Sequence record: MZ234025.1
Strand: one strand, 5' to 3'
DNA: 64,000 nt
From: Escherichia phage vB_EcoM-172859UKE1
Positions within the stretch are counted from its first letter, which is position 1, and every line of letters starts with the position of its first letter. The notes below the pieces were generated by a model. The model saw only the letters and a program-made list of their open reading frames with translations, made no database searches and was not told the origin of the DNA. This document shows, piece by piece, positions 8,116-54,974 of the stretch. A program made the position numbers and the translations under genes.

Positions 8116-9396
8116 TTAGTCTATAATAATTTTAGGCAATTTAACACCGAGTAAAACAGACAAGTCTGAACGTCCTGCCATTTTATCCATGTCCCCACCA
8201 TCAATTATTCTCGCTTCTTTTTCGTCTTTTGCTACTGTGTAAGGATTTGCTGATAAAGCATATCTAACCAATAATCCGATAGACGGTTGCAAGCTTTCTG
8301 GATCAACTACAACTTTAAAAGCACCGACATGTTCCGGGTCATCTAAATCTACTCCTTCAGTGTATGGAGCATAAAAGATTGACCCTACAATTTCTTTTTC
8401 GCCGATATTTTCTACAACACCCACAACAACATAATCTAACGGGCTGTTGGTATCGCAGTAAAGAGGTAATCCATTTGCCAAGAATCCATAAGCATTTTGT
8501 GAAAGATACTTGTCATCTTCTGGCTTATGTTTTAACCAACCAGAAGCAGCAAGAATAGCAGCTGCACGAGCTGAGGCTACACAAAACGTTGCAGTATAAG
8601 TTGTCTCTTTTTGAATGTGTGATACCATTTCACACACCATTCGATATAATGAACGACCTGCTTCTGGAGCGGATGCATAACTCAAGTCAATAAATCCGGT
8701 GTCAGTAATTCCAGTAACTTTATAACGTTTCGATACAGTAATTAAAGACTGAAGAATATCTTTATTAATTTCATCAGCCATTTCAGTAGCAAGCAAATCT
8801 TCTAAGAAGTTAGGGGCATCAAATCCATTAGCTTCCAAATCTTGCGCTAATTCAACCGTGAGGCCAGTTTTAAGTTTACGAGATTTGACTGAAGTTTGCC
8901 ATTTATTAATCTGGAATCTTGCATCAGAAATTTCGCTACCAGAGCTTTCAAATTTGCTTGTTACCGCTGCATCTGAAAATAACCGTACCTTTAAATGAAC
9001 GATTGCAATCTGAAGAGCTAATTCTAGATCACTTTCTTGAATATCTGCAAATGGTGCATCTTCTAACACTTTATAGACGATATTATTATATTTGAAAAAA
9101 TCGCCTTTATTTAGTGTGACTTTTGATTCTTCTGTGAGTTCGGTAATTTTTTCTCGGTCTACATATCCAGCTTCACCCGCATAAGTAGCACCAGTTTTAA
9201 ATGTGAATTCGTTATCCGGGTTAAGATATTTGATACCATAAAAAGCAGCAACAGGTTGATTAGTTCTTTGTGTTGCTACAATGTCAGAATATATTAATTT
9301 AGTCGTAGCGCGAGTCAAAGCAACGAGATTTGGGCGACCAATTGAGTTGCTAGTAGACGTTGTAGATTCACGCAATAATTTTTGGATTTTACTCAT
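8116..9396 (-). CDS. 24: Capsid vertex protein gp24
   Basis: 426 aa; gp23 paralog downstream of gene 23 as in T4. Confidence 0.9.
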   Translation of the reverse strand: MSKIQKLLRESTTSTSNSIGRPNLVALTRATTKLIYSDIVATQRTNQPVAAFYGIKYLNPDNEFTFKTGATYAGEAGYVDREKITELTEESKVTLNKGDFFKYNNIVYKVLEDAPFADIQESDLELALQIAIVHLKVRLFSDAAVTSKFESSGSEISDARFQINKWQTSVKSRKLKTGLTVELAQDLEANGFDAPNFLEDLLATEMADEINKDILQSLITVSKRYKVTGITDTGFIDLSYASAPEAGRSLYRMVCEMVSHIQKETTYTATFCVASARAAAILAASGWLKHKPEDDKYLSQNAYGFLANGLPLYCDTNSPLDYVVVGVVENIGEKEIVGSIFYAPYTEGVDLDDPEHVGAFKVVVDPESLQPSIGLLVRYALSANPYTVAKDEKEARIIDGGDMDKMAGRSDLSVLLGVKLPKIIID

Positions 9397-9423
9397 TGCA
9401 TTTTTTCCTTATGTGATATAGAT

Positions 9424-9431
9424 TATTTATA
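9424..9431 (-). promoter_or_regulatory. T4-type late promoter box TATAAATA (for gene 24)
   Basis: Exact TATAAATA on minus strand about 30 nt upstream of gene 24 ATG. Confidence 0.6.
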
Positions 9432-9437
9432 AAGATT

Positions 9438-9467
9438 GTTTACAACGTATTTGGTATGTGATACTAT
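9438..9467 (+). promoter_or_regulatory. Early sigma70-type promoter (GTTTAC -35, TGaTACTAT -10)
   Basis: GTTTAC at 9438-9443, 18-nt spacer, TACTAT at 9462-9467; same cassette as at 45750-45813. Confidence 0.55.
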
Positions 9468-9503
9468 AGACTTATCAACTACAGAGGAGTAAACAAAATG
9501 ACT
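9462..9503 (+). repeat. 42-bp promoter/RBS cassette, exact copy of 45772..45813
   Basis: tactatagacttatcaactacagaggagtaaacaaaatgact occurs identically at both loci. Confidence 0.85.
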
Positions 9504-9767
9504 AAAGCACGTTTCTTACGAGATACTTTAAAAGTTCTGGAAGCTGAAGCAGTTAAGTTAGTAGAAAAATATGGTGCAAAAGTTAATGGTAATGCCTTCA
9601 ACAAAGTATGGATGAAAGTTGATTCTGAAGCTCGAGCTAAAGGTTATTGGGCCACTGATAAACTTGCATCATTCAAAAACAAAGACGGTTCTCCAGCATA
9701 TGTCCAAGAAGGTATGCCTAATTGGCAAAATATTTTGAAAACTTACATCGAAATTGCACAGAAATAA
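9498..9767 (+). CDS. Hypothetical protein (89 aa) inserted between genes 24 and 23 on the opposite strand
   Basis: ORF with GAGGAG SD; MTKARFLRDTLKVLEAE...; own early-type promoter; no recognisable domain. Confidence 0.65.
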   Translation: MTKARFLRDTLKVLEAEAVKLVEKYGAKVNGNAFNKVWMKVDSEARAKGYWATDKLASFKNKDGSPAYVQEGMPNWQNILKTYIEIAQK

Positions 9768-9777
9768 AACCAAAAAT

Positions 9778-9795
9778 GGGAGACCGAAGTCTCCC
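9778..9795 (-). terminator. Terminator hairpin downstream of gene 23
   Basis: GGGAGAC-cgaa-GTCTCCC hairpin; a T-run follows on the minus strand. Confidence 0.65.
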
Positions 9796-9819
9796 AAAAT
9801 AAGATTTAATCAATTAAGA

Positions 9820-11388
9820 TTAGATGCCTTTTACATATACACGTCTAAAGTAAGCGTTCTTACCAAGGCTGTTCAGGATAGACGGCATACCGGACTGGAT
9901 GCGAGCACCTGGAGCCTGCAGGGAACTTTCAGCAAACGGGTTAACACCGATACCGTAACGAGTTTTAAAGCCCATTACCGGCTGGAAGTTCTTAGGATCG
10001 GAACCACGCAGTGGGGTAAGTGCAACGTAAGGAGCATAGTAAATACCTGCATCCATTTCGTTAGCGCCTTTGTAACCAACGGTGAAGTAATCCTGTTTAG
10101 CATACTGGTCGATGTATACGCGGTATTTACCGCCAAGTACACCGGCAAATACAGACTTAGTAGTGTCGGTATTAAAACCAGAAGCCAGACCCTGTGCAGC
10201 GTAAGAAATACCAGTATCAACTGAAGCCAGTACGTTAACTACGTTACGGGAAGCGATAATGAAGTTACCTTCACCACGACCGGTTTGACGAGCAATTTCA
10301 ACTGCTTCTTTATCAATCTGGAACAACAGAGCTTTAAAGCTTTCACCGGCCCAACGAGCACCACGGATATCAATCGGGTCCTGGAAGTCGAATACACCAG
10401 CTTTAGAACCAACGATATTAGTCATACCAGATTTACCAACCTGAGCGGAGTAGTTAATCCAGTCAACAACTTCACGGTTGATTTCCAGCATAATTTCAGT
10501 AGCAAGAATACCACTCAGTTCAGCATCAGCATCCATACCGTGTACTGCACGGAGGTCTTGTGCCAATTCGATGGAGTAAGCTGCTTTCAGCTGACGAGAT
10601 TTAGCTTCAATAACTTGTTTGTCGATACGGAAGCCCATTTCGTTCCACGGGTTGTCGGTAGAACCATTGAAGCCTTCCTGAAGTTCAGCGATAGAAGTAG
10701 CCATACCTTCAGCGATTTCTACCAGTACACCTGCTTCCATTTGTTTGATAATTTCTGCATCCAGCAATTCTGGGGTAGAAGCCTCAGCGCTAATGGTAAC
10801 AACTTTAGTGGCCTGAAGATAAGTAGAACCAGTTTCAGCGAAGAAGTGATAATAAATGTCGCCGGCTACAGTGGACATACCAGCGGTAACAGGAGCAAAT
10901 GCTTTTGCAGCACCCTGACCAGAGAACATCGCATCTGGAGCATACATCGGATGGAAAGCTTCTTTAGCGTCAGCAGCGATAGGGTCTTTACCATATACTG
11001 CACGGAGAGCAAATACCTGACCGGTAGGGCTGTTCATAGGCTGAACACCACAAATATCAAAAGCGATCAGATTAGGAATAGCACGACGAACCATACCCAT
11101 AACTGCCGGCCCAATTTGGGTTACTGCACCAGAGGTTTGACCTGCTGCGATGTTCTGAGCATTATAACCGTGGTCACCACCAATTTCAGCTTCGGTCAAG
11201 AAAGAACCAAATGCCTGAGCGATTTTCTCGTCTTTATATTCAGGGGATACTTCGAAATCTTTTTCCTGGTTTTCGAAGATTTTAGCGATAATAGCCTGCT
11301 TGCTATTAGCGATTTCCGGCAGGCCTTCACCTTCCAGCAGTTCTTTCCATTTGTCTACGAGCTGAGCTTTAGTTTTGATAGTAGTCAT
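9820..11388 (-). CDS. 23: Major capsid protein gp23
   Basis: 522 aa; matches recalled T4 gp23 over most of its length (MTTIKTKAQL...NAYFRRVYVKGI). Confidence 0.97.
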   Translation of the reverse strand: MTTIKTKAQLVDKWKELLEGEGLPEIANSKQAIIAKIFENQEKDFEVSPEYKDEKIAQAFGSFLTEAEIGGDHGYNAQNIAAGQTSGAVTQIGPAVMGMVRRAIPNLIAFDICGVQPMNSPTGQVFALRAVYGKDPIAADAKEAFHPMYAPDAMFSGQGAAKAFAPVTAGMSTVAGDIYYHFFAETGSTYLQATKVVTISAEASTPELLDAEIIKQMEAGVLVEIAEGMATSIAELQEGFNGSTDNPWNEMGFRIDKQVIEAKSRQLKAAYSIELAQDLRAVHGMDADAELSGILATEIMLEINREVVDWINYSAQVGKSGMTNIVGSKAGVFDFQDPIDIRGARWAGESFKALLFQIDKEAVEIARQTGRGEGNFIIASRNVVNVLASVDTGISYAAQGLASGFNTDTTKSVFAGVLGGKYRVYIDQYAKQDYFTVGYKGANEMDAGIYYAPYVALTPLRGSDPKNFQPVMGFKTRYGIGVNPFAESSLQAPGARIQSGMPSILNSLGKNAYFRRVYVKGI

Positions 11389-11405
11389 TTGTGTTAACCT
11401 TTAAA

Positions 11406-12218
11406 TTAGAAACGAGATGCGACTTTCGCATATAAACTTACATTAGAATTCTGTTCTACCTGAGTTGTGGTAGTGTCAACTGCTTCGGCAACAAAATTAA
11501 GACCGGCAGCGTCATTGTCAACTGTATTTATACTTTCGGTAATAGCGGCTTCTTCTTTAGTAGAACCTTTAACCATTTCTACAATAGCAGTTAACTTAGT
11601 ACCAAATGCGTCAGAATAATCCATACCTTCAACCAGGCCAATAACTTTTTCTTTCTGAGATTCAGTCAGGTCTTTTACGCTTTCATTAATAGCGGTTTCA
11701 CGCTGAACGTAATTGATATATGCATCACGTTTGGTAACTTCTTCGAACAAACGAGCGGTTTCTTCTTTATGTTCGGCCAGCTCTTCTTCCATTTCTGCTA
11801 CAACATCTACAGATTCTTCTGGAACAACAACGTTATGTTCAACAAACAGTTCTTTCAGACCACCAAGCATGGATTCGAACAAATCAGCTTTAATGCCTTT
11901 ATCAACTGCGATTTGGTTTTCTGCGAGCCATTCTTTTGCAAGATGGTCTAGGAATTTAGAAGCTTGTTCAGCCAATTTTTTATCAGCTTTCTCTTCAGCA
12001 TCTTCTTTAGCCTTTTCAACTTCTTCTTCGGCTTTTTCGGCGATGGCTTTGATATGAGATTCAGCCAGTTTGACTGCTTCCTGCTTAACGGTGGCTTCGA
12101 ATACAGTGCTGAAATTAGCTTTAACGTCCGGAGACAGTTCTACTGATTCGAAAACACTATTAAGAGCAACTGAAGTCTCGATGTTCTGAGCTTCTTTCAA
12201 AAGTTGTTCTTTGATCAT
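11406..12218 (-). CDS. 22: Prohead core scaffold protein gp22
   Basis: 270-aa acidic coiled-coil protein directly upstream of gene 23. Confidence 0.9.
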   Translation of the reverse strand: MIKEQLLKEAQNIETSVALNSVFESVELSPDVKANFSTVFEATVKQEAVKLAESHIKAIAEKAEEEVEKAKEDAEEKADKKLAEQASKFLDHLAKEWLAENQIAVDKGIKADLFESMLGGLKELFVEHNVVVPEESVDVVAEMEEELAEHKEETARLFEEVTKRDAYINYVQRETAINESVKDLTESQKEKVIGLVEGMDYSDAFGTKLTAIVEMVKGSTKEEAAITESINTVDNDAAGLNFVAEAVDTTTTQVEQNSNVSLYAKVASRF

Positions 12219-12248
12219 TTTAGTGTCCTGTGGTTTAGATTACATTAT

Positions 12249-12256
12249 TATTTATA
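12249..12256 (-). promoter_or_regulatory. T4-type late promoter box TATAAATA (for gene 22)
   Basis: Exact TATAAATA on minus strand at the 3' end of gene 21. Confidence 0.55.
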
Positions 12257-12893
12257 ATGCTTTTAAACTCTCTGCGAGAGCTTTAAATGCTTCGTCAGCA
12301 CTGTTTTTGGTGATTTCCACCGAATTTTCTGATTCTGATATTTGTTTAGGAGTAACCCAAGCATCTGGAGCAGAAGGTCCCCATACGGCATCTACGCCGA
12401 CGGTTAATTTAAATCCTTCGTTCACGATACGGTACCCTTTATTGGTGTCGGTTAAAGAACCAAGACCACGAGAGGAAACACCTGGAATCCAACCAGCTCG
12501 TATATTAGCAGCTAATTTATCGCCGGGACCGTGGTCGCCTTCAATAATTCTAGCACGTCCATATACATCGTTTCCTTTCCACCACATATCTTCAATAATG
12601 ATAGCGGCTTGCATAGGGTCAACATTTGCACGAGGTGGATGGTTTAATTCTCCAAGGGCTTGTTTGGTTGCGACTTGTTCTTTAATATAGTCACTTACTG
12701 CTTTTTCCAAAACACGTTTAGGATATAAACGTTTATTTCGGTTAACAACCTCTGCCTGAAGAAAAATACCTTCTATATAAAGCCCTGGTTTTAAGCCAGA
12801 ATCTTTTCCATCATGAGATTCCAACATTGGAACGCCATCAATAATCTCACCGGGTTGACCCCAAGTTTCAATAAGTAACTCGGGTTTATTCAT
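12252..12893 (-). CDS. 21: Prohead core protease gp21
   Basis: 213 aa; position and size as T4 gp21. Confidence 0.9.
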   Translation of the reverse strand: MNKPELLIETWGQPGEIIDGVPMLESHDGKDSGLKPGLYIEGIFLQAEVVNRNKRLYPKRVLEKAVSDYIKEQVATKQALGELNHPPRANVDPMQAAIIIEDMWWKGNDVYGRARIIEGDHGPGDKLAANIRAGWIPGVSSRGLGSLTDTNKGYRIVNEGFKLTVGVDAVWGPSAPDAWVTPKQISESENSVEITKNSADEAFKALAESLKAL

Positions 12894-13318
12894 TAGCTTA
12901 ATCCTAATGCTTTACGACGTTTAAGAGCCTTTTTACGCTTACGCAAGCCTTTAACTTGGCCTGAAGGGTTAGCTTTTTTAGCTTTAACGACCTTACGAGC
13001 GATTTGTCTACGTTTTGCTTTAGAAAGACCAGTTGTTTGGAACGCGTTACGTTCACGAGTTTTACGGTCTTTAGTGCGGGTGACTTCACCACGAGAAGAA
13101 ACATGTTTAACGATAAACTCATTTAACTGTTCTTCATTAATAATGGAAGCCATTGCAACAGCTAAATCCGTTTCAGTTTCAAGCATGTTCTCGATAATAG
13201 TATTTATATCGTCAATATCGAGAGCAGAAGACAATGCATCGATTCGGCCCTGTGCTTCAGGAATAAGTGCTTCGACATTTTCGAGTACCAATTCATAAGA
13301 TTCAGGGATAAGATACAT
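12893..13318 (-). CDS. 68: Prohead core protein gp68
   Basis: 141 aa with basic C-terminus, between 67 and 21. Confidence 0.85.
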
Positions 13319-13554
13319 TATTCATCGTCCTCATCATCTTCGTCTTCGTCGTCATCGCCTTCATCAGCGTCGTCTTCCGAAGCTTTAGCTTTCTTTTCTT
13401 CTTCAGGTTCTTCGCCTTCAATCAAAAATTGAGAAGCGATTTCTGCTTTGCGTGCTTCAATCAAACAAACCGTTTTTTCTGCCATTGCACTTTCAAAAAA
13501 CTTTCGAGTAGCAACGAGGTCGTTTGATTTAATAGCTTGAATTAAATCGTCCAT
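13318..13554 (-). CDS. 67: Prohead core protein gp67
   Basis: 78 aa with poly-acidic C-terminus ([12 protein letters not shown]). Confidence 0.85.
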
Positions 13555-15125
13555 TAAAAATCCTCTTGTTCTTGGTCGGGGTCTTGGAAACGAGCCTCTT
13601 TCGACTCTTCTTCAATTTGCTTAGCCTCTTGTTCAATTTCCTCATCAGACATCTGAAGAATATCTTTCATAGCTGTTCTGTGAGAAATATATTTACCAAT
13701 AAATGGTTCGGCCATCTGAAGCATATTAATGCGACGCTCCAGAATCTCAGCATCCTTTAATTCCGAGAAATAACTATCCCGATGAAATTTTATCTTAATA
13801 TTATTTATTTCATCATTCCACTCATCTTCTGTAATAATTCCTTTAAGAATTAAATTAGTTTTAAGCGGGTCTAGGAATATCTCTTCAAATTTATGTTGCA
13901 GCTCACGAATAAATTTACCAAATGACAATTCATCTCGTGTAATAGAAGTACCAGCATCAAACTGTATACCACCTTGGTCACTTGGAATACGGGTAATAGG
14001 AATACGTAAAGCCATATAAAGCGCATTACGGAACCAACGTACATCTTCCATATTTCCAGTATTATCTGCACCTGGTAATGTGTCAACTTCTGTTACTGCT
14101 TTACCATCACGTCGTTGTAACCAATAATCTTCGGTCATCGACATAATATGCTGCTGGTTTTTAATCTTGCCTGTAGTAGCATCATATGCAATACGGTTTT
14201 TCATCGTATTCATAACATGTTGCATATGTTCTGCTGCTTTTCTTGAAGGCATATTACCTGTATCAACGTACCATACACGACGATCGGGAGCACGAGTAAT
14301 ACGATAAATTACGACGGCATCTTCAAGAAGTTTTAATTGGTTCGCTGGCTTAATAGCCCGATGCAAATAACCGATGATATTTTTACCACAACAATCAACT
14401 AAACCAGAATGGGCATAAACAATCGCGGCTTTAGGGATTTTTATTTTTGTGCCAGCTTCATATATGCGACCATCACAAGCATAAGATTCGTGTGATGTGT
14501 CATAAATGAAATATTCTTTATAACCCTTGACTATTTTAACACCGGCTTCAGTGGTTGTAATAACTTCACGGACATATTGAACTTGACGTGGGTCTAAACG
14601 ACGAAGCTCTTTAATACCTTCTTTAGGGCGTTTAGGGTCAATAATTTTATGGAAGAAAATTCGAGAATCTACATACCAACGCCTAAAATGGTCTGAACCT
14701 TTACGTTGGAAAGATAAATGATTCAACACTTCGTTAAATTCATCCAACATCATTGATTTGATATTTGGACTAAATTTTGTGTTGTCTAAATTTATAGAAA
14801 CGACTTCTGTATCATCTTCATACACGATAGCATCAGAAACTATTTCAGAGACCGCGTTATCCACTTCATAGTTCGTCATCAAATTTCGATACGTATCGAT
14901 TAATTCACGGGTTGATTTAAGCCCCGGTTCTTGACTACCGAACATTCTCTGAAACATAGCATTATATGTTTGCTGTGCTTCATTTTCAGATACTTCGTAT
15001 TCTTTAGCGCCGTCGTCTAATTTTGGTGCGGTGATAGATTCTAAATTTTCTTTTTCTTGGTCTTTGTAATCACGTTCGTCCATTTTTGCCCATGGAGCAA
15101 ACAAACTTAAGATATTAAATTTCAT
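13554..15125 (-). CDS. 20: Portal vertex protein gp20
   Basis: 523 aa; size and position as T4 gp20. Confidence 0.92.
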
Positions 15126-41960: not shown

Positions 41961-42248
41961 ATGAAAACTTATCAAGAGTTTATATCACCTATTGCTAACG
42001 TTTCTACTCTGACCGAAGCAACCCTTACTTCCGAAGTTATTAAAGCAAATAAAGGACGTGAGGGTAAACCAATGATTAGTCTGGCTGACGGCGAAGAAGT
42101 AAAAGGTACTGTTTACTTAGGGGATGGATGGTCTGCTAAGAAAGACGGCGCTACTATTGTTATCTCTCCGGCTGAAGAGACCGCACTGTTTAAAGCTAAG
42201 CATATTTCTGTAGCTCAGCTTAAAATTATTGCAAAAACTCTTCTGTAA
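41961..42248 (+). CDS. ipI: Internal protein I-like (capsid-targeted, DNA co-injected)
   Basis: 95 aa (length of T4 IPI precursor); N-terminal capsid targeting sequence MKTYQEFI...LTE; position after 57B. Confidence 0.65.
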   Translation: MKTYQEFISPIANVSTLTEATLTSEVIKANKGREGKPMISLADGEEVKGTVYLGDGWSAKKDGATIVISPAEETALFKAKHISVAQLKIIAKTLL

Positions 42249-43909: not shown

Positions 43910-43927
43910 ACTTTAAGTGAGGAAAAT

Positions 43928-44272
43928 ATGAAAGGCAATATTTATCTGGTAGTTCATGACTTAACGTTTTATTTTAACGAACGTGAAACAGTTATTTCCG
44001 ACCGGTTGATTAATTCGTTATATCAACACGCTGATTACGTTTATTTCCAAAATGAATTTGGCCATTGGAAGTTTCTTAAAAACCGTTCAGGGTTAACTAG
44101 TTTTGAATACTTTGACCGTAAAGACCTTTTAAACGAAATTCCATTACAACATCGGTTCCAGAAACGCGAATCACTATACTATTGTCGTCATATACCAAAT
44201 GCTGAATGTGTTAATGAAGCGATTAATCTATGGCGGCGGCGTCGAGAGCAAATTGATGATATGCCAAAATAA
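43928..44272 (+). CDS. Hypothetical protein (114 aa)
   Basis: ATG 43928 after GAGG SD, just downstream of the tRNAs; the ORF-track start at 43880 would overlap tRNA-Arg. Confidence 0.55.
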   Translation: MKGNIYLVVHDLTFYFNERETVISDRLINSLYQHADYVYFQNEFGHWKFLKNRSGLTSFEYFDRKDLLNEIPLQHRFQKRESLYYCRHIPNAECVNEAINLWRRRREQIDDMPK

Positions 44273-44273
44273 G

Positions 44274-44583
44274 AAGCCGGGTCGCTACCGGCAAGTCGTC
44301 GGACTGATGTTCCCTGAGTAAGGACTGGTCTTAATAAATCTTTACGATTTGTTAATATCCCCTTACATCACAGCAGAAACGGCGCACCGAATTATCGATT
44401 CGAGGAAATATCTTTGCCGTAAGCCGAGTAGCGTTTTTGACGGAACGTTCGGATATGGTCGAGATATGGCCTTTTAAAAATATTGAGTAGCGTCAACTGC
44501 TTAATAACCGGGTTCGAATCCCGGCGTTTCGTACAAACACTTGCCTTAGCAGGTGGAACCCCGACAAGGTTGCCGCAAGGCTT
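44274..44583 (+). ncRNA. Candidate stable noncoding RNA region next to the tRNA genes
   Basis: About 310 nt without a credible ORF, GC-richer than surroundings, tRNA-like T-arm CCGGG-TTCGAAT-CCCGG at 44508-44524, ends at a strong terminator; analogous to T4 stable RNAs by position. Confidence 0.3.
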
Positions 44584-44612
44584 AGCCCCTTCCGAAAGGT
44601 CGGGGCTTTTTG
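44584..44612 (+). terminator. Rho-independent terminator
   Basis: AGCCCC...GGGGCT hairpin followed by TTTTT; near-identical copy at 60733. Confidence 0.7.
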
Positions 44613-44656
44613 GCATAATAATAAATAGATAAGTTAATTAACTTAGGAAAAGCAAC

Positions 44657-45121
44657 ATGAAATCATACGCTGAATTTTTGACTGAACAATCTAGTTCAGA
44701 TGTAAAAGCCGCTGCGATTGCAGCAATTCAAGCAGGTAAATATTCTTACAAAGACGCCTCTGATGAAGAACGTTTCCGTTTTATTAGAGATTTTAAAGCC
44801 GAAGGTTTTACTAATGCTAATACTGTTAGCCGAGTTTTTAAAAGCCTAGCTGCATCAGGTGAATTGTTCCAGAAAGCTACAGGTAAAGCACCTGCGCCAA
44901 AAACAGACCCTAAAGCAGCTCAAGAAAAAAATATCGCCAAAGGAATTATTTCTAAGTATGAAGCAATTCTTAAAGAGCTTTTAGTAATCAAAACAGAAGG
45001 CCAGAAACTGGCACGAGCACATAGCTTCAAAGATAATCCTCACGCTCATAGCCTTGAGTATGTTGAAGATATCCAAAAACTTATTAAAGACCGTATCTGG
45101 TCTGCTAAACAAATTAAATAA
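44657..45121 (+). CDS. Internal-protein-like protein with CTS-like N-terminus (154 aa)
   Basis: N-terminus MKSYAEFLTE resembles the T4 capsid targeting sequence MKTYQEFIAE. Confidence 0.55.
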   Translation: MKSYAEFLTEQSSSDVKAAAIAAIQAGKYSYKDASDEERFRFIRDFKAEGFTNANTVSRVFKSLAASGELFQKATGKAPAPKTDPKAAQEKNIAKGIISKYEAILKELLVIKTEGQKLARAHSFKDNPHAHSLEYVEDIQKLIKDRIWSAKQIK

Positions 45122-45126
45122 TAGAA

Positions 45127-45155
45127 TGCCCCTTCCTTATGGTTGGGGCCTTTTG
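45127..45155 (+). terminator. Rho-independent terminator
   Basis: GCCCC...GGGGC hairpin followed by a T-rich run. Confidence 0.6.
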
Positions 45156-52879: not shown

Positions 52880-53368
52880 ATGAATATATTTGAAATGCTT
52901 CGTAATGACGAAGGTCTTAGACTGACTTTATACAAAGACACTGAAGGCTTTTGGACGATTGGCATAGGCCATTTAGTAACAAAGAACCCGTCTTTAGCCG
53001 TAGCTAAAGCTGAACTTGACAGAATGATCGGTCGTAAATGCAACGGTACAATTACCCTTGATGAGGCTGAAAAGCTATTTAATGAAGACGTTGATAAAGC
53101 CGTTCGCGGAATCTTGGGTAATGCTAAACTTAAACCGGTATACGATTCTTTAGATGCGGTTCGTCGATGTGCATTGGTCAATATGGTCTTCCAAATGGGT
53201 GTAGCAGGCGTCGCCGGTTTTACTAATTCTCTTCGTATGCTTCAACAGAAACGTTGGGACGAAGCGGCAGTAAATCTAGCCCAATCTAAATGGTATCGTC
53301 AGACACCTAATCGCGCGAAACGCGTAATCTCAACATTTAAAACAGGAACTTGGAAAGCGTATATATGA
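52880..53368 (+). CDS. e: Lysozyme (endolysin) e
   Basis: 162 aa from ATG 52880; matches recalled T4 lysozyme ([20 protein letters not shown]...TGTW). Confidence 0.95.
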
Positions 53369-53646
53369 AAACATATAGTGAATTTTTATCAGAATCTATT
53401 CTTAGCGAAGCTACTGACACATTTGCAACTAAGCTAGGTGCAGCTTTGGTTGAAGCTGAAAGTCTATTAGCACGTATTTCTGAACTTGCTAGTAAGATAG
53501 ATACTCGCAAATTTGAGCGCACTAGTGATATCGTTAAGCTTGAAGCATTGTTGCGCATGTGCGATAAACCGGAAGAAATCGCTAAGAACGGCTCTCTAAT
53601 GAAACAACGTCTTGAAAAATATATTTCAGGCGCTTCAGAAAAATAG
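53365..53646 (+). CDS. Internal-protein-like protein with CTS (93 aa)
   Basis: N-terminus [10 protein letters not shown]; located between e and denV where T4 has ipIII/ipII. Confidence 0.6.
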
Positions 53647-53647
53647 T

Positions 53648-53677
53648 GTTTACTTCCTCCAAGAGTTTTGATACTAT
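53648..53677 (+). promoter_or_regulatory. Early promoter with inverted repeat whose right arm contains the SD
   Basis: GTTTAC at 53648-53653, 18-nt spacer, TACTAT at 53672-53677; arms TTCCTCCAAG/CTTGGAGGAA. Confidence 0.6.
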
Positions 53678-53704
53678 ACATTCATCAACTACTTGGAGGA
53701 AATT

Positions 53705-54118
53705 ATGACCCGTATCAATTTAACACTTGTTTCTGAACTGGCCGACCAACATCTTATGGCTGAGTATCGTGAATTACCTCGTGTATTCGGTGCAGTCCGT
53801 AAACATGTCCAAAACGGTAAACGTGTAAAAGATTTTAAAATCTCTCCAACATTTATCTTAGGCACAGGTCACGTAACATTCTTTTACGACAAACTCGAAT
53901 TTTTACGTTTACGACAAATCGAGCTAATCGCTGAATGTTTGAAACGTGGTTTCAAAATCAAGGACACGACAGTCCAGGATATTTCCGACATCCCTGCCGA
54001 ATTTCGTAATAATTATGTCCCGTCCGAAGCGTCCATTGCGATAAGTCAAGCACGCTTAGATGAAAAAATTGCTCAACGTCCGACTTGGTACAAATACTAT
54101 GGTAAATCAATTTACTAA
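53705..54118 (+). CDS. denV: Endonuclease V (pyrimidine dimer DNA glycosylase) DenV
   Basis: 137 aa from ATG 53705; matches recalled T4 endonuclease V ([34 protein letters not shown]...). Confidence 0.95.
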
Positions 54119-54124
54119 GGAAAA

Positions 54125-54241
54125 ATGAAAATGTATCAAGAATTTATCATTGAAGCAGATGCCAAAGGTCCTAAAGTAGATGTTGACGATATTGGATACG
54201 ATTTTAACAACTTCGGAATTATTTCTGGCGGTAAAGCTTAA
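54125..54241 (+). CDS. Mini internal-protein-like peptide with CTS (38 aa)
   Basis: MKMYQEFIIEADAKG...; AAGGAAAA SD; below the ORF-track cutoff. Confidence 0.4.
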   Translation: MKMYQEFIIEADAKGPKVDVDDIGYDFNNFGIISGGKA

Positions 54242-54244
54242 ATT

Positions 54245-54274
54245 GTTTACGCTTAAGTATTAATATGGTATAAT
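54245..54274 (+). promoter_or_regulatory. Early promoter (near-consensus)
   Basis: GTTTAC at 54245-54250, 18-nt spacer, TGgTATAAT at 54266-54274. Confidence 0.65.
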
Positions 54275-54304
54275 TACTCTATCAAAACAAACAAGGAAAC
54301 AAAA

Positions 54305-54619
54305 ATGAAAACGTATAAAGAATTTATTGCAGAATCCGCCAACCAACGCGTTGAAGGCGGTTATATTTGGATTGAACAAGTTGAACCACCGAGCCGCACT
54401 TCTACAGGTAAATGGAAAATTACTGTTGATGGTCCTGGTGGTAAACGTAGGACCCTTAAAGAAATTAATGGGTACTATGAAGAAGCTCTTTCGGATGCAG
54501 GAACTTACATGATGCAAATCATGATTAAAAACCCTGAAAACCGTTTTGCAGCTAAAGTCTTCCGTCGCATCGGTAATAAACTTTATGATGCATACTCTAA
54601 AAACTTCCCTAAAGAATAA
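54305..54619 (+). CDS. Internal-protein-like protein with CTS (104 aa)
   Basis: N-terminus MKTYKEFIAE. Confidence 0.6.
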   Translation: MKTYKEFIAESANQRVEGGYIWIEQVEPPSRTSTGKWKITVDGPGGKRRTLKEINGYYEEALSDAGTYMMQIMIKNPENRFAAKVFRRIGNKLYDAYSKNFPKE

Positions 54620-54644
54620 CATAAATTAAAACAATAGGAACAAA

Positions 54645-54974
54645 ATGAAAACGTATCAAGAGTTTATCACTGAAGTTACATTATCTGCGGAACAGAAAGC
54701 TGCTATCGAAGAAGGTAAAAATCCCAAAGTAACATATAAAGTAAATAGTAAAGGCGTTTTTGATGGTTTGGTTCAAGACCCTGAATTGAAAAAAGCTCTT
54801 TCTAAAACTAATGCGTACTTTGCTCCTAAATTTAACACAGCCGGTGTACTTATTGGATTGGATGTATTCAACTCTAAAGGTGTTCTATCTAGTGCCTTTG
54901 GTTATGCCGCTAACAAAATTACCAAAGCTGCATGGGAATCCAATACCAAACAAGCTCAAAAGCCTAGAGTATAA
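54645..54974 (+). CDS. Internal-protein-like protein with CTS (109 aa)
   Basis: N-terminus MKTYQEFITE. Confidence 0.6.
   Translation: MKTYQEFITEVTLSAEQKAAIEEGKNPKVTYKVNSKGVFDGLVQDPELKKALSKTNAYFAPKFNTAGVLIGLDVFNSKGVLSSAFGYAANKITKAAWESNTKQAQKPRV

Follow-up and report, generated by a model that had tools for sequence, protein, structure and literature searches.

A capsid-targeting-type leader on a gene between rnaC and e.8 of T4-like phages: a probable further internal protein

Introduction

Directly after the tRNA/stable-RNA region of Escherichia phage vB_EcoM-172859UKE1, an ORF of the plus strand (44657-45121, ATG start) encodes a protein of 154 aa whose N-terminus reads MKSYAEFLTE. Positions are those of the window, that is, the whole stretch of 64,000 nucleotides analysed here (MZ234025.1). 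The question raised by this locus is whether such a start marks one more protein that travels in the phage head and enters the host with the DNA, or whether the resemblance to the leaders of such proteins is misleading. The capsid targeting sequence (CTS), comprising about the first ten residues of IPIII and IPII (MKTYQEFIAE), is enough for foreign proteins to be packaged in T4 heads (PMC9026906). Among the internal proteins (Ips), Ip1, Ip2 and Ip3 are specific anti-restriction effectors, each of which blocks a distinct GmrSD enzyme, and the Ip repertoire of T-even phages has been described at two loci (PMC12373910). The gene considered here belongs to neither the ipI nor the ipII/ipIII locus, but has rnaC on one side and the e.8-side genes on the other. 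An initial annotation, made from the letters of the window, had proposed that it encodes a further injected protein or is a case of leader shuffling, and both proposals are weighed below.

The gene and its neighbourhood

The ORF is preceded, 8 nt 5' of its ATG, by a Shine-Dalgarno sequence read as AGGAA (44645-44649, plus strand), which is likewise kept in homologous loci. Its DNA is 100% identical in E. coli O157 typing phage 3, in APCEc01 and in other phages of Mosigvirus, which are T4-like Straboviridae, and comparison with alleles of related phages gave dN/dS values of 0.07-0.20. The product matches PHROG 2280 ('unknown function') with an E-value of 1.4e-53, residues 1-154 aligning with profile positions 1-172 of 178. 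By tblastn it was found in 511 phage records, its Klebsiella homologue in 521 and the core gene gp1 in 1320, which places the family in about 521 of about 1320 gp1-bearing T4-like phage records. In all matching records inspected the ORF is labelled 'hypothetical protein'. Taken together, the dN/dS values, the Shine-Dalgarno sequence, the full-length PHROG match and the 511 tblastn records establish ORF 44657-45121 as a true gene under purifying selection.

On its 5' side lie, in order, ipI (41961-42248; Pfam IPI_T4), the homologues of tRNA.4, tRNA.3 and tRNA.2, tRNA-Met, tRNA-Arg, and the homologues of rnaD and rnaC. The last of these (species 1 stable RNA; 44395-44533, plus strand) is near-identical to T4 rnaC when aligned to the NC_000866 annotation, and closes the tRNA/stable-RNA operon as its final product. 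Rfam, which has no rnaC model, returned only the two tRNAs in this neighbourhood. The gene therefore adjoins the tRNA/stable-RNA region, as had been described. It was also said to sit apart from the other IP-like genes, and it does: the window's other CTS genes are ipI at 41961 and four more at 53365-54974, lying 2.4 kb (end to start) and 8.2 kb away, respectively. Two small ORFs of the surroundings may be mentioned. One (43925-44272), a homologue of RB68_139 and RB69ORF150c, is placed between tRNA-Arg and the rnaD homologue, where the T4 operon is pure RNA. The other (54125-54241) is a CTS ORF of 38 aa (MKMYQEFIIE..., PHROG 35655) whose mature peptide would have 28 residues; in relatives, an ORF of 86 aa likewise begins with MKMYQEFI.

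The two terminator hairpins reported to bracket the gene are indeed in place. The upstream one (44584-44611, plus strand), a hairpin with a T-run, is the intrinsic terminator of the tRNA/stable-RNA operon. The downstream one (45128-45154, plus strand) was identified in the sequence itself, and its folding gave -16.4 kcal/mol and a z-score of -2.8; it has just four T, and the terminator scan returned only the upstream hairpin. Alignment showed that the two are diverged copies of a direct repeat, which is almost perfect in RB68. Gene and promoter thus form a cassette of about 540 bp with direct terminator repeats at both ends. T4 has a single terminator copy, which agrees with the upstream copy in its left flank and with the downstream copy in its right flank, so T4 lacks exactly the promoter and gene between the repeats. 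Gain or loss of the cassette would proceed via recombination between the terminator repeats. This arrangement is reminiscent of the PeSL cassettes of T4-type phages, in which promoter/stem-loop repeats have been proposed to drive indels (Arbiol 2010; Comeau 2014, PMC4122927): in both, a repeated stem-loop flanks a variable gene, and presence or absence is explained by recombination between the repeats. While a PeSL combines an early promoter with a stem-loop, here the operon terminator serves as the stem-loop and the promoter motif is of the late type. Since the gene is missing from T4, PST and ValerieMcCarty03, it is dispensable, as Ips are.

The leader as a capsid targeting sequence

To score the leader, a ten-residue log-odds profile was derived from 20 leaders of the two classical Ip loci, taken from T4, RB68, the window and eight IMG/VR relatives, with the PHROG 2280-type family left out. 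In the window, MKSYAEFLTE (44657-44686, plus strand) reached 21.6 bits and ranked sixth of 1715 candidate starts. The five above it (28.6-36.3 bits) are the window's other CTS genes, all of which are in the training set, and the best non-CTS start scored 8.3 bits. True leaders, scored by leave-one-out, ranged from 18.9 to 36.4 bits, and MKSYAEFLTE falls inside this range. Specificity was controlled by a scan of the whole T4 genome with a profile whose training set contained no T4 leader. Just four of 4023 starts exceeded 10 bits, namely IPII and IPIII (35.9 each), gene 61.1 (27.0) and IPI (19.4), the fifth-best start having 9.5 bits. With the same non-T4 profile MKSYAEFLTE obtained 22.0 bits, more than the proven IPI. 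The likeness of this leader to a CTS is not due to chance; the diverged CTS that the initial annotation had recognised is significant in a leader-specific profile from whose training the family was excluded.

The residues that matter point in the same direction. In the summary of Mullaney & Black (1996) given in PMC9026906, CTS residues 4 and 7 weigh most in targeting, and residues 8 and 10 in gp21 processing. The leader of ORF 44657 retains all four, with Tyr4 and Phe7 on the targeting side and Leu8 and Glu10 on the cleavage side, so that profile scores and key residues both support reading it as a CTS ending in the gp21 cleavage motif L-T-E. Near alleles carry MKTYNEFLTE, which scores 31 bits. 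Leader codons vary synonymously between alleles of the family, which implies constraint at the protein level. Furthermore, [LI]-x-E closes the leader in every family member, even where indels occur just ahead of the motif, as in MKTYNEFLMTE, MKSYAQFLNEAVLNE, MLEYSEFLKELFCE and MISFNEFVDGNLITE, which have inserted residues and nevertheless end in this way.

Two observations weigh on the other side. The distant members found in Klebsiella phages have degenerate leaders, MKFKEFLAE and MITFNDILAE, with ungapped scores of -8 and 10 bits, and these count against a packaged protein. The idea that they follow a 'CTS dialect' of their own phage genus is unsupported, as they do not match the Ips of a phage in the same genus, which have canonical leaders (MKTYKEFITE and MKTYQEFLNE). 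The second observation concerns T4 gene 61.1, whose 54-aa product begins MKTFKEFIKE followed by DMVAG (27 bits; L018 18966-19130, minus strand). The gene sits in the early primase region, and gp61.1 is missing from the core proteins named in a 2023 review of the T4 head. Like ORF 44657 it has a CTS-like start outside both classical Ip loci; it differs in its length, in belonging to an early gene cluster and in its unrelated sequence. Because a strong CTS-like start is found here on a protein not listed in the core, the CTS motif alone is no proof of packaging, and the positive predictive value of the leader profile may fall short of 100%.

Late promoter and head machinery

A T4-type late promoter motif, AATAAATA (44620-44627, plus strand), stands 37 nt before the ATG; it is the A(-13) variant of TATAAATA. 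In 11 of 12 homologous loci, these 11 being from E. coli phages and Jiaodavirus, the T-run of the terminator is followed at once by a late-promoter motif, at a distance of 34-48 nt from the ATG. The perfect TATAAATA is present in eight of the 12 and AATAAATA in three (the window and other Mosigvirus loci), while the twelfth has CATAAATA about 88 nt upstream. That the window carries the variant and not the consensus counts against the packaged-protein reading; A(-13) is the commonest natural variant, found in 9 of 50 T4 late promoters (PMC2988020). The promoter scan found no sigma-70-type promoter upstream of ORF 44657. In this the gene differs from ipI (41961) and the 54305 gene of the same window, which are preceded by early-type promoters, whereas ORF 44657 has the late-type motif only. 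Late transcription from AATAAATA would be the natural reading of the motif.

The machinery that a CTS-bearing protein would need is also encoded. The T4-type head module, with gp20 (portal), gp67, gp68, gp21, gp22, gp23 and gp24, is complete within the window (8116-15125, minus strand). The prohead protease gp21 (12252-12893, minus strand; Pfam PF03420, E 3e-107) is the enzyme expected to remove the leader, and the gp22 scaffold matches PF25623.

The mature protein

The description of the product as Lys/Ala-rich and helical was accurate: of its 154 residues 21 are Lys and 23 Ala, and the AlphaFold model (pLDDT 74) has six helices and a disordered leader. Without its first ten residues the protein would have 144 aa, 16 kDa, a pI of 9.6 and 20 Lys. 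Three parts can be distinguished in the model. The mature N-terminal domain (residues 11-71; 44687-44869, plus strand) is predicted to be a three-helix bundle, with helices within 13-67 and pLDDT of 78-88, and has the motif AGKYSYKD-SDE-RF-F-RD-KAEGF. It is followed by a Pro/Lys/Ala-rich linker (residues 72-84; 44870-44908, plus strand) of low pLDDT without secondary structure, and by a C-terminal antiparallel helical region (residues 85-154; 44909-45118, plus strand), modelled as a long hairpin spanning 85-151.

At the boundary of linker and C-domain lies an A7 homopolymer run (44925-44931, plus strand), which is a frameshift point in database variants. A frameshift at this run shortens P0007 to 108 aa and P0008 to 93 aa, and in some complete genomes (H83, H84) the gene is in two pieces. 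These frameshifts could be sequencing errors or real truncations to the N-domain.

Profile searches, which had been suggested for the mature region, were productive in one respect: the full-length match to PHROG 2280 stands, while Pfam and NCBIfam yielded only sub-threshold noise (GemA, MerR and others, E about 0.1). An exhaustive HMMER search returned family members, chimeras and one weak match to a PPR-like repeat protein, and nothing else. In that match, the N-domain motif SDEERFRFIRDFKAEGFT (residues 33-72) is faintly like the repeat unit TSDAERQRLFAQMQAAGVTP of the 869-aa protein P0016 (E 1e-4), a resemblance that may be due to chance. The predicted mature fold gave no informative structural match. 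None of these results hints at a binding partner of the mature protein, a point against the packaged-protein reading. The alignment with T4 IPIII is confined to the leader, so homology between the mature parts was rejected, and no likeness to Ip1-3 in sequence or fold was found beyond the leader.

Family members and a paralogue at the same locus

Comparison of the locus across related phages, also proposed at the outset, showed that the cassette may be present, absent (as in T4), or accompanied by a second CTS-led gene. In Jiaodavirus and Marfavirus phages of Klebsiella, the corresponding place, beyond the last tRNA and the stable RNAs, is taken by a member of 177 aa. Its N-domain is about 59% identical, and its C-terminal half aligns poorly by BLAST. 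Certain relatives in Mosigvirus and Tequatrovirus have, directly downstream of the ORF 44657 homologue, another ORF that is led by a CTS, encodes 187 aa (MKTYAEFLTE...) and has its own AATAAATA (L006, 10591-11154; L012 and L013, from about 10600). Only the leader of this ORF aligns with the ORF 44657 product by BLAST; its match to PHROG 2280 at E 4e-53 identifies it as a distant paralogue. Full-length matches to the same profile were likewise obtained for the Klebsiella homologues, P0010 and P0017. The 187-aa form is absent from the window and is the only one in RB69 (L016, 11429-11991, minus strand), where a frameshift splits it into ORF149c and ORF148c; the RB69 record labels these 'hypothetical' and the classical Ips 'internal head protein'. 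The family thus comprises two subfamilies, paralogous to each other and both led by a CTS, in the gap between rnaC and e.8, and this gap is a third CTS locus, in which different phages have no such gene, one or two.

The two halves of the protein vary differently depending on the comparison. Between Mosigvirus and Tequatrovirus alleles (window 44657-45118 against L003, L007, L009 and L011) the C-domain is 90-97% identical and the N-domain only 60-65%, while between E. coli and Klebsiella phages the N-domain is the recognisably conserved half. Three composite proteins were also noted in the database. In P0009 the final 31 residues of the ORF 44657 product follow a tRNA.3-like N-terminus, a junction that would require loss of the entire tRNA/stable-RNA region; in P0013 the Klebsiella form is fused to the downstream gene; and P0014, in which 38 family residues lie inside an unrelated protein, is probably an assembly chimera. 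Literature searches by ORF names and leader strings, whose coverage left out Repoila et al. (1994) and most subscription journals, returned no paper naming the PHROG 2280-type family.

Proposed route into the head and the host

The reading preferred here, with a probability of roughly 0.7, is that the ORF 44657 product is a late-made, basic pre-protein of the T4 'internal protein' type, packaged by means of its CTS, trimmed after Glu10 and injected. The further, probably injected protein suggested by the initial annotation thus finds support at the sequence level in the profile scores, the four key positions, the [LI]-x-E ending, the late motif and the presence of gp21 and the scaffold. To judge by the motif, transcription of the gene would be late and would be driven by a gp55-type promoter immediately beyond the terminator that closes the tRNA/stable-RNA operon. 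MKSYAEFLTE would then carry the pre-protein into the gp22 scaffolding core of the prohead, where gp21 would cut after Glu10 and leave a basic protein of 144 residues with a three-helix domain, a linker and a helical hairpin. By analogy to Ip1-3, the mature protein would remain with the packaged DNA and enter the host with it. Once there, it would most probably counter first-response defence of the host, as Ip1-3 do, but this last step is speculative, and an anti-defence role is suggested by that analogy.

In several respects the protein resembles known Ips. T4 IPII and IPIII and the Ip4-Ip13 type variants of T-even phages, encoded at the ipI and ipII/ipIII loci, have the same kind of ten-residue MKTYQEFIAE-type leader ending in [LI]-x-E, and T4-type Ips are likewise small, basic, Lys-rich, dispensable, patchy among close relatives and encoded alongside the same gp21/gp22 head module. 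In comparison with IPII and IPIII, the mature sequence is unrelated and the locus, between rnaC and e.8, is a third one; and whereas classical Ips change fast, the N-domain of this protein is conserved across phage genera. T4 IPI (PF11634, a GmrSD inhibitor) shares the CTS lead and the gp21 processing predicted for ORF 44657, and its leader is also diverged (MKTFKEFTST...ITE), with a profile score below that of ORF 44657. IPI has a 19-residue propeptide, a compact alpha/beta fold and a known target, in contrast to the all-helical fold predicted for the ORF 44657 product. As to virions, the literature yielded no proteome from any phage with the gene. The inspectable proteome of T4-like Klebsiella phages (Jiaodavirus ValerieMcCarty03/04) comes from phages without the gene, the RB69 paper deals with DNA sugars only, and the papers on Yersinia fPS and Kosakonia Kc304 contain no proteome.

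Alternative readings

The strongest competitor, which is nevertheless considered rather improbable, is that the gene encodes a cytoplasmic late protein, neither packaged nor injected, whose CTS-like start is a relic or convergent and whose function might relate to its tRNA/stable-RNA neighbours. The degenerate leaders in Klebsiella phages are compatible with this, as are the CTS-like start of T4 gene 61.1, which is absent from the listed core proteins, and an N-domain unusually conserved for an Ip. Against it stand the conservation of the late-promoter motif and the retention of the four mapped leader positions and the cleavage motif over hundreds of genomes in which the codons vary synonymously. 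Moreover, since the ten CTS residues suffice for loading into T4 heads (PMC9026906), a late-made protein that starts with MKSYAEFLTE would be expected to be loaded.

Somewhat less probable again is a protein that is packaged by its CTS but acts only in the head, as a basic DNA counterion or packaging-density protein, with no role after injection. The mature pI of 9.6 with 20 Lys would suit such a function, as would an N-domain conserved across genera, and the Lys of T4 internal proteins touch DNA phosphates in the head (PMC3012670). This explanation has to contend with T4, PST and numerous relatives whose head is the same but which do without the gene, and with the fact that all three T4 Ips with identified targets are anti-restriction effectors. 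Paralogues and differing C-terminal halves are, in addition, what would be expected under an arms race.

Leader shuffling, in which an unrelated gene lately gained its leader by recombination with an Ip gene, was the other proposal of the initial annotation and is very unlikely as the origin of this leader. Every family member has such a leader, including the distant ones and the paralogous subfamily, which makes it ancestral to the family and shuffling unnecessary. What survives of the proposal is a short patch at codons 3-5. Set against an allele of 96% identity, the window shows 99% identity in the DNA of the N-domain, but these codons differ at five of nine bases, and the variants K-S-Y-A and K-T-Y-N are spread independently of genus, both occurring in both genera. 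The exchanged patch, whose DNA recurs in no other CTS gene of the window, lies inside the leader, between alleles of one gene, and the mosaic points to short-patch exchange among alleles. Finally, a spurious ORF within an intergenic spacer, for which the 'hypothetical protein' labels of the records are the sole support, is excluded for practical purposes by dN/dS of 0.07-0.20, the Shine-Dalgarno sequence, the full-length PHROG match (E 1e-53) and the 511 phage records matched by tblastn.

Implications

The packaged and injected internal protein remains the preferred reading, and the evidence supports an internal protein led by a CTS, at a locus that had so far passed without remark, the CTS reading of PHROG 2280 being added here on the strength of sequence comparison. 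A wider proposal may tentatively be drawn from it, although the odds are against it at present: PHROG 2280 would mark a third Ip locus, widespread in T4-like phages of enterobacteria, whose late-made, CTS-loaded and injected products disable a host first-response defence other than the targets of Ip1-3, and whose cassette was lost by T4. As part of this same tentative proposal, a genus-spanning three-helix N-domain would be combined with a C-terminal half that differs by subfamily and genus.

The approach is of use beyond this gene, for a simple leader profile can pick candidates for packaged proteins genome-wide, and it also flags T4 gene 61.1. Should the wider proposal be true, loss of the cassette in T4 would explain why a third Ip locus has been overlooked. 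The ORF 44657 family, which occurs in roughly 40% of the T4-like enterobacterial phages sequenced, would then extend the Ip repertoire to a third locus and provide a testable candidate for a new counter-defence protein.
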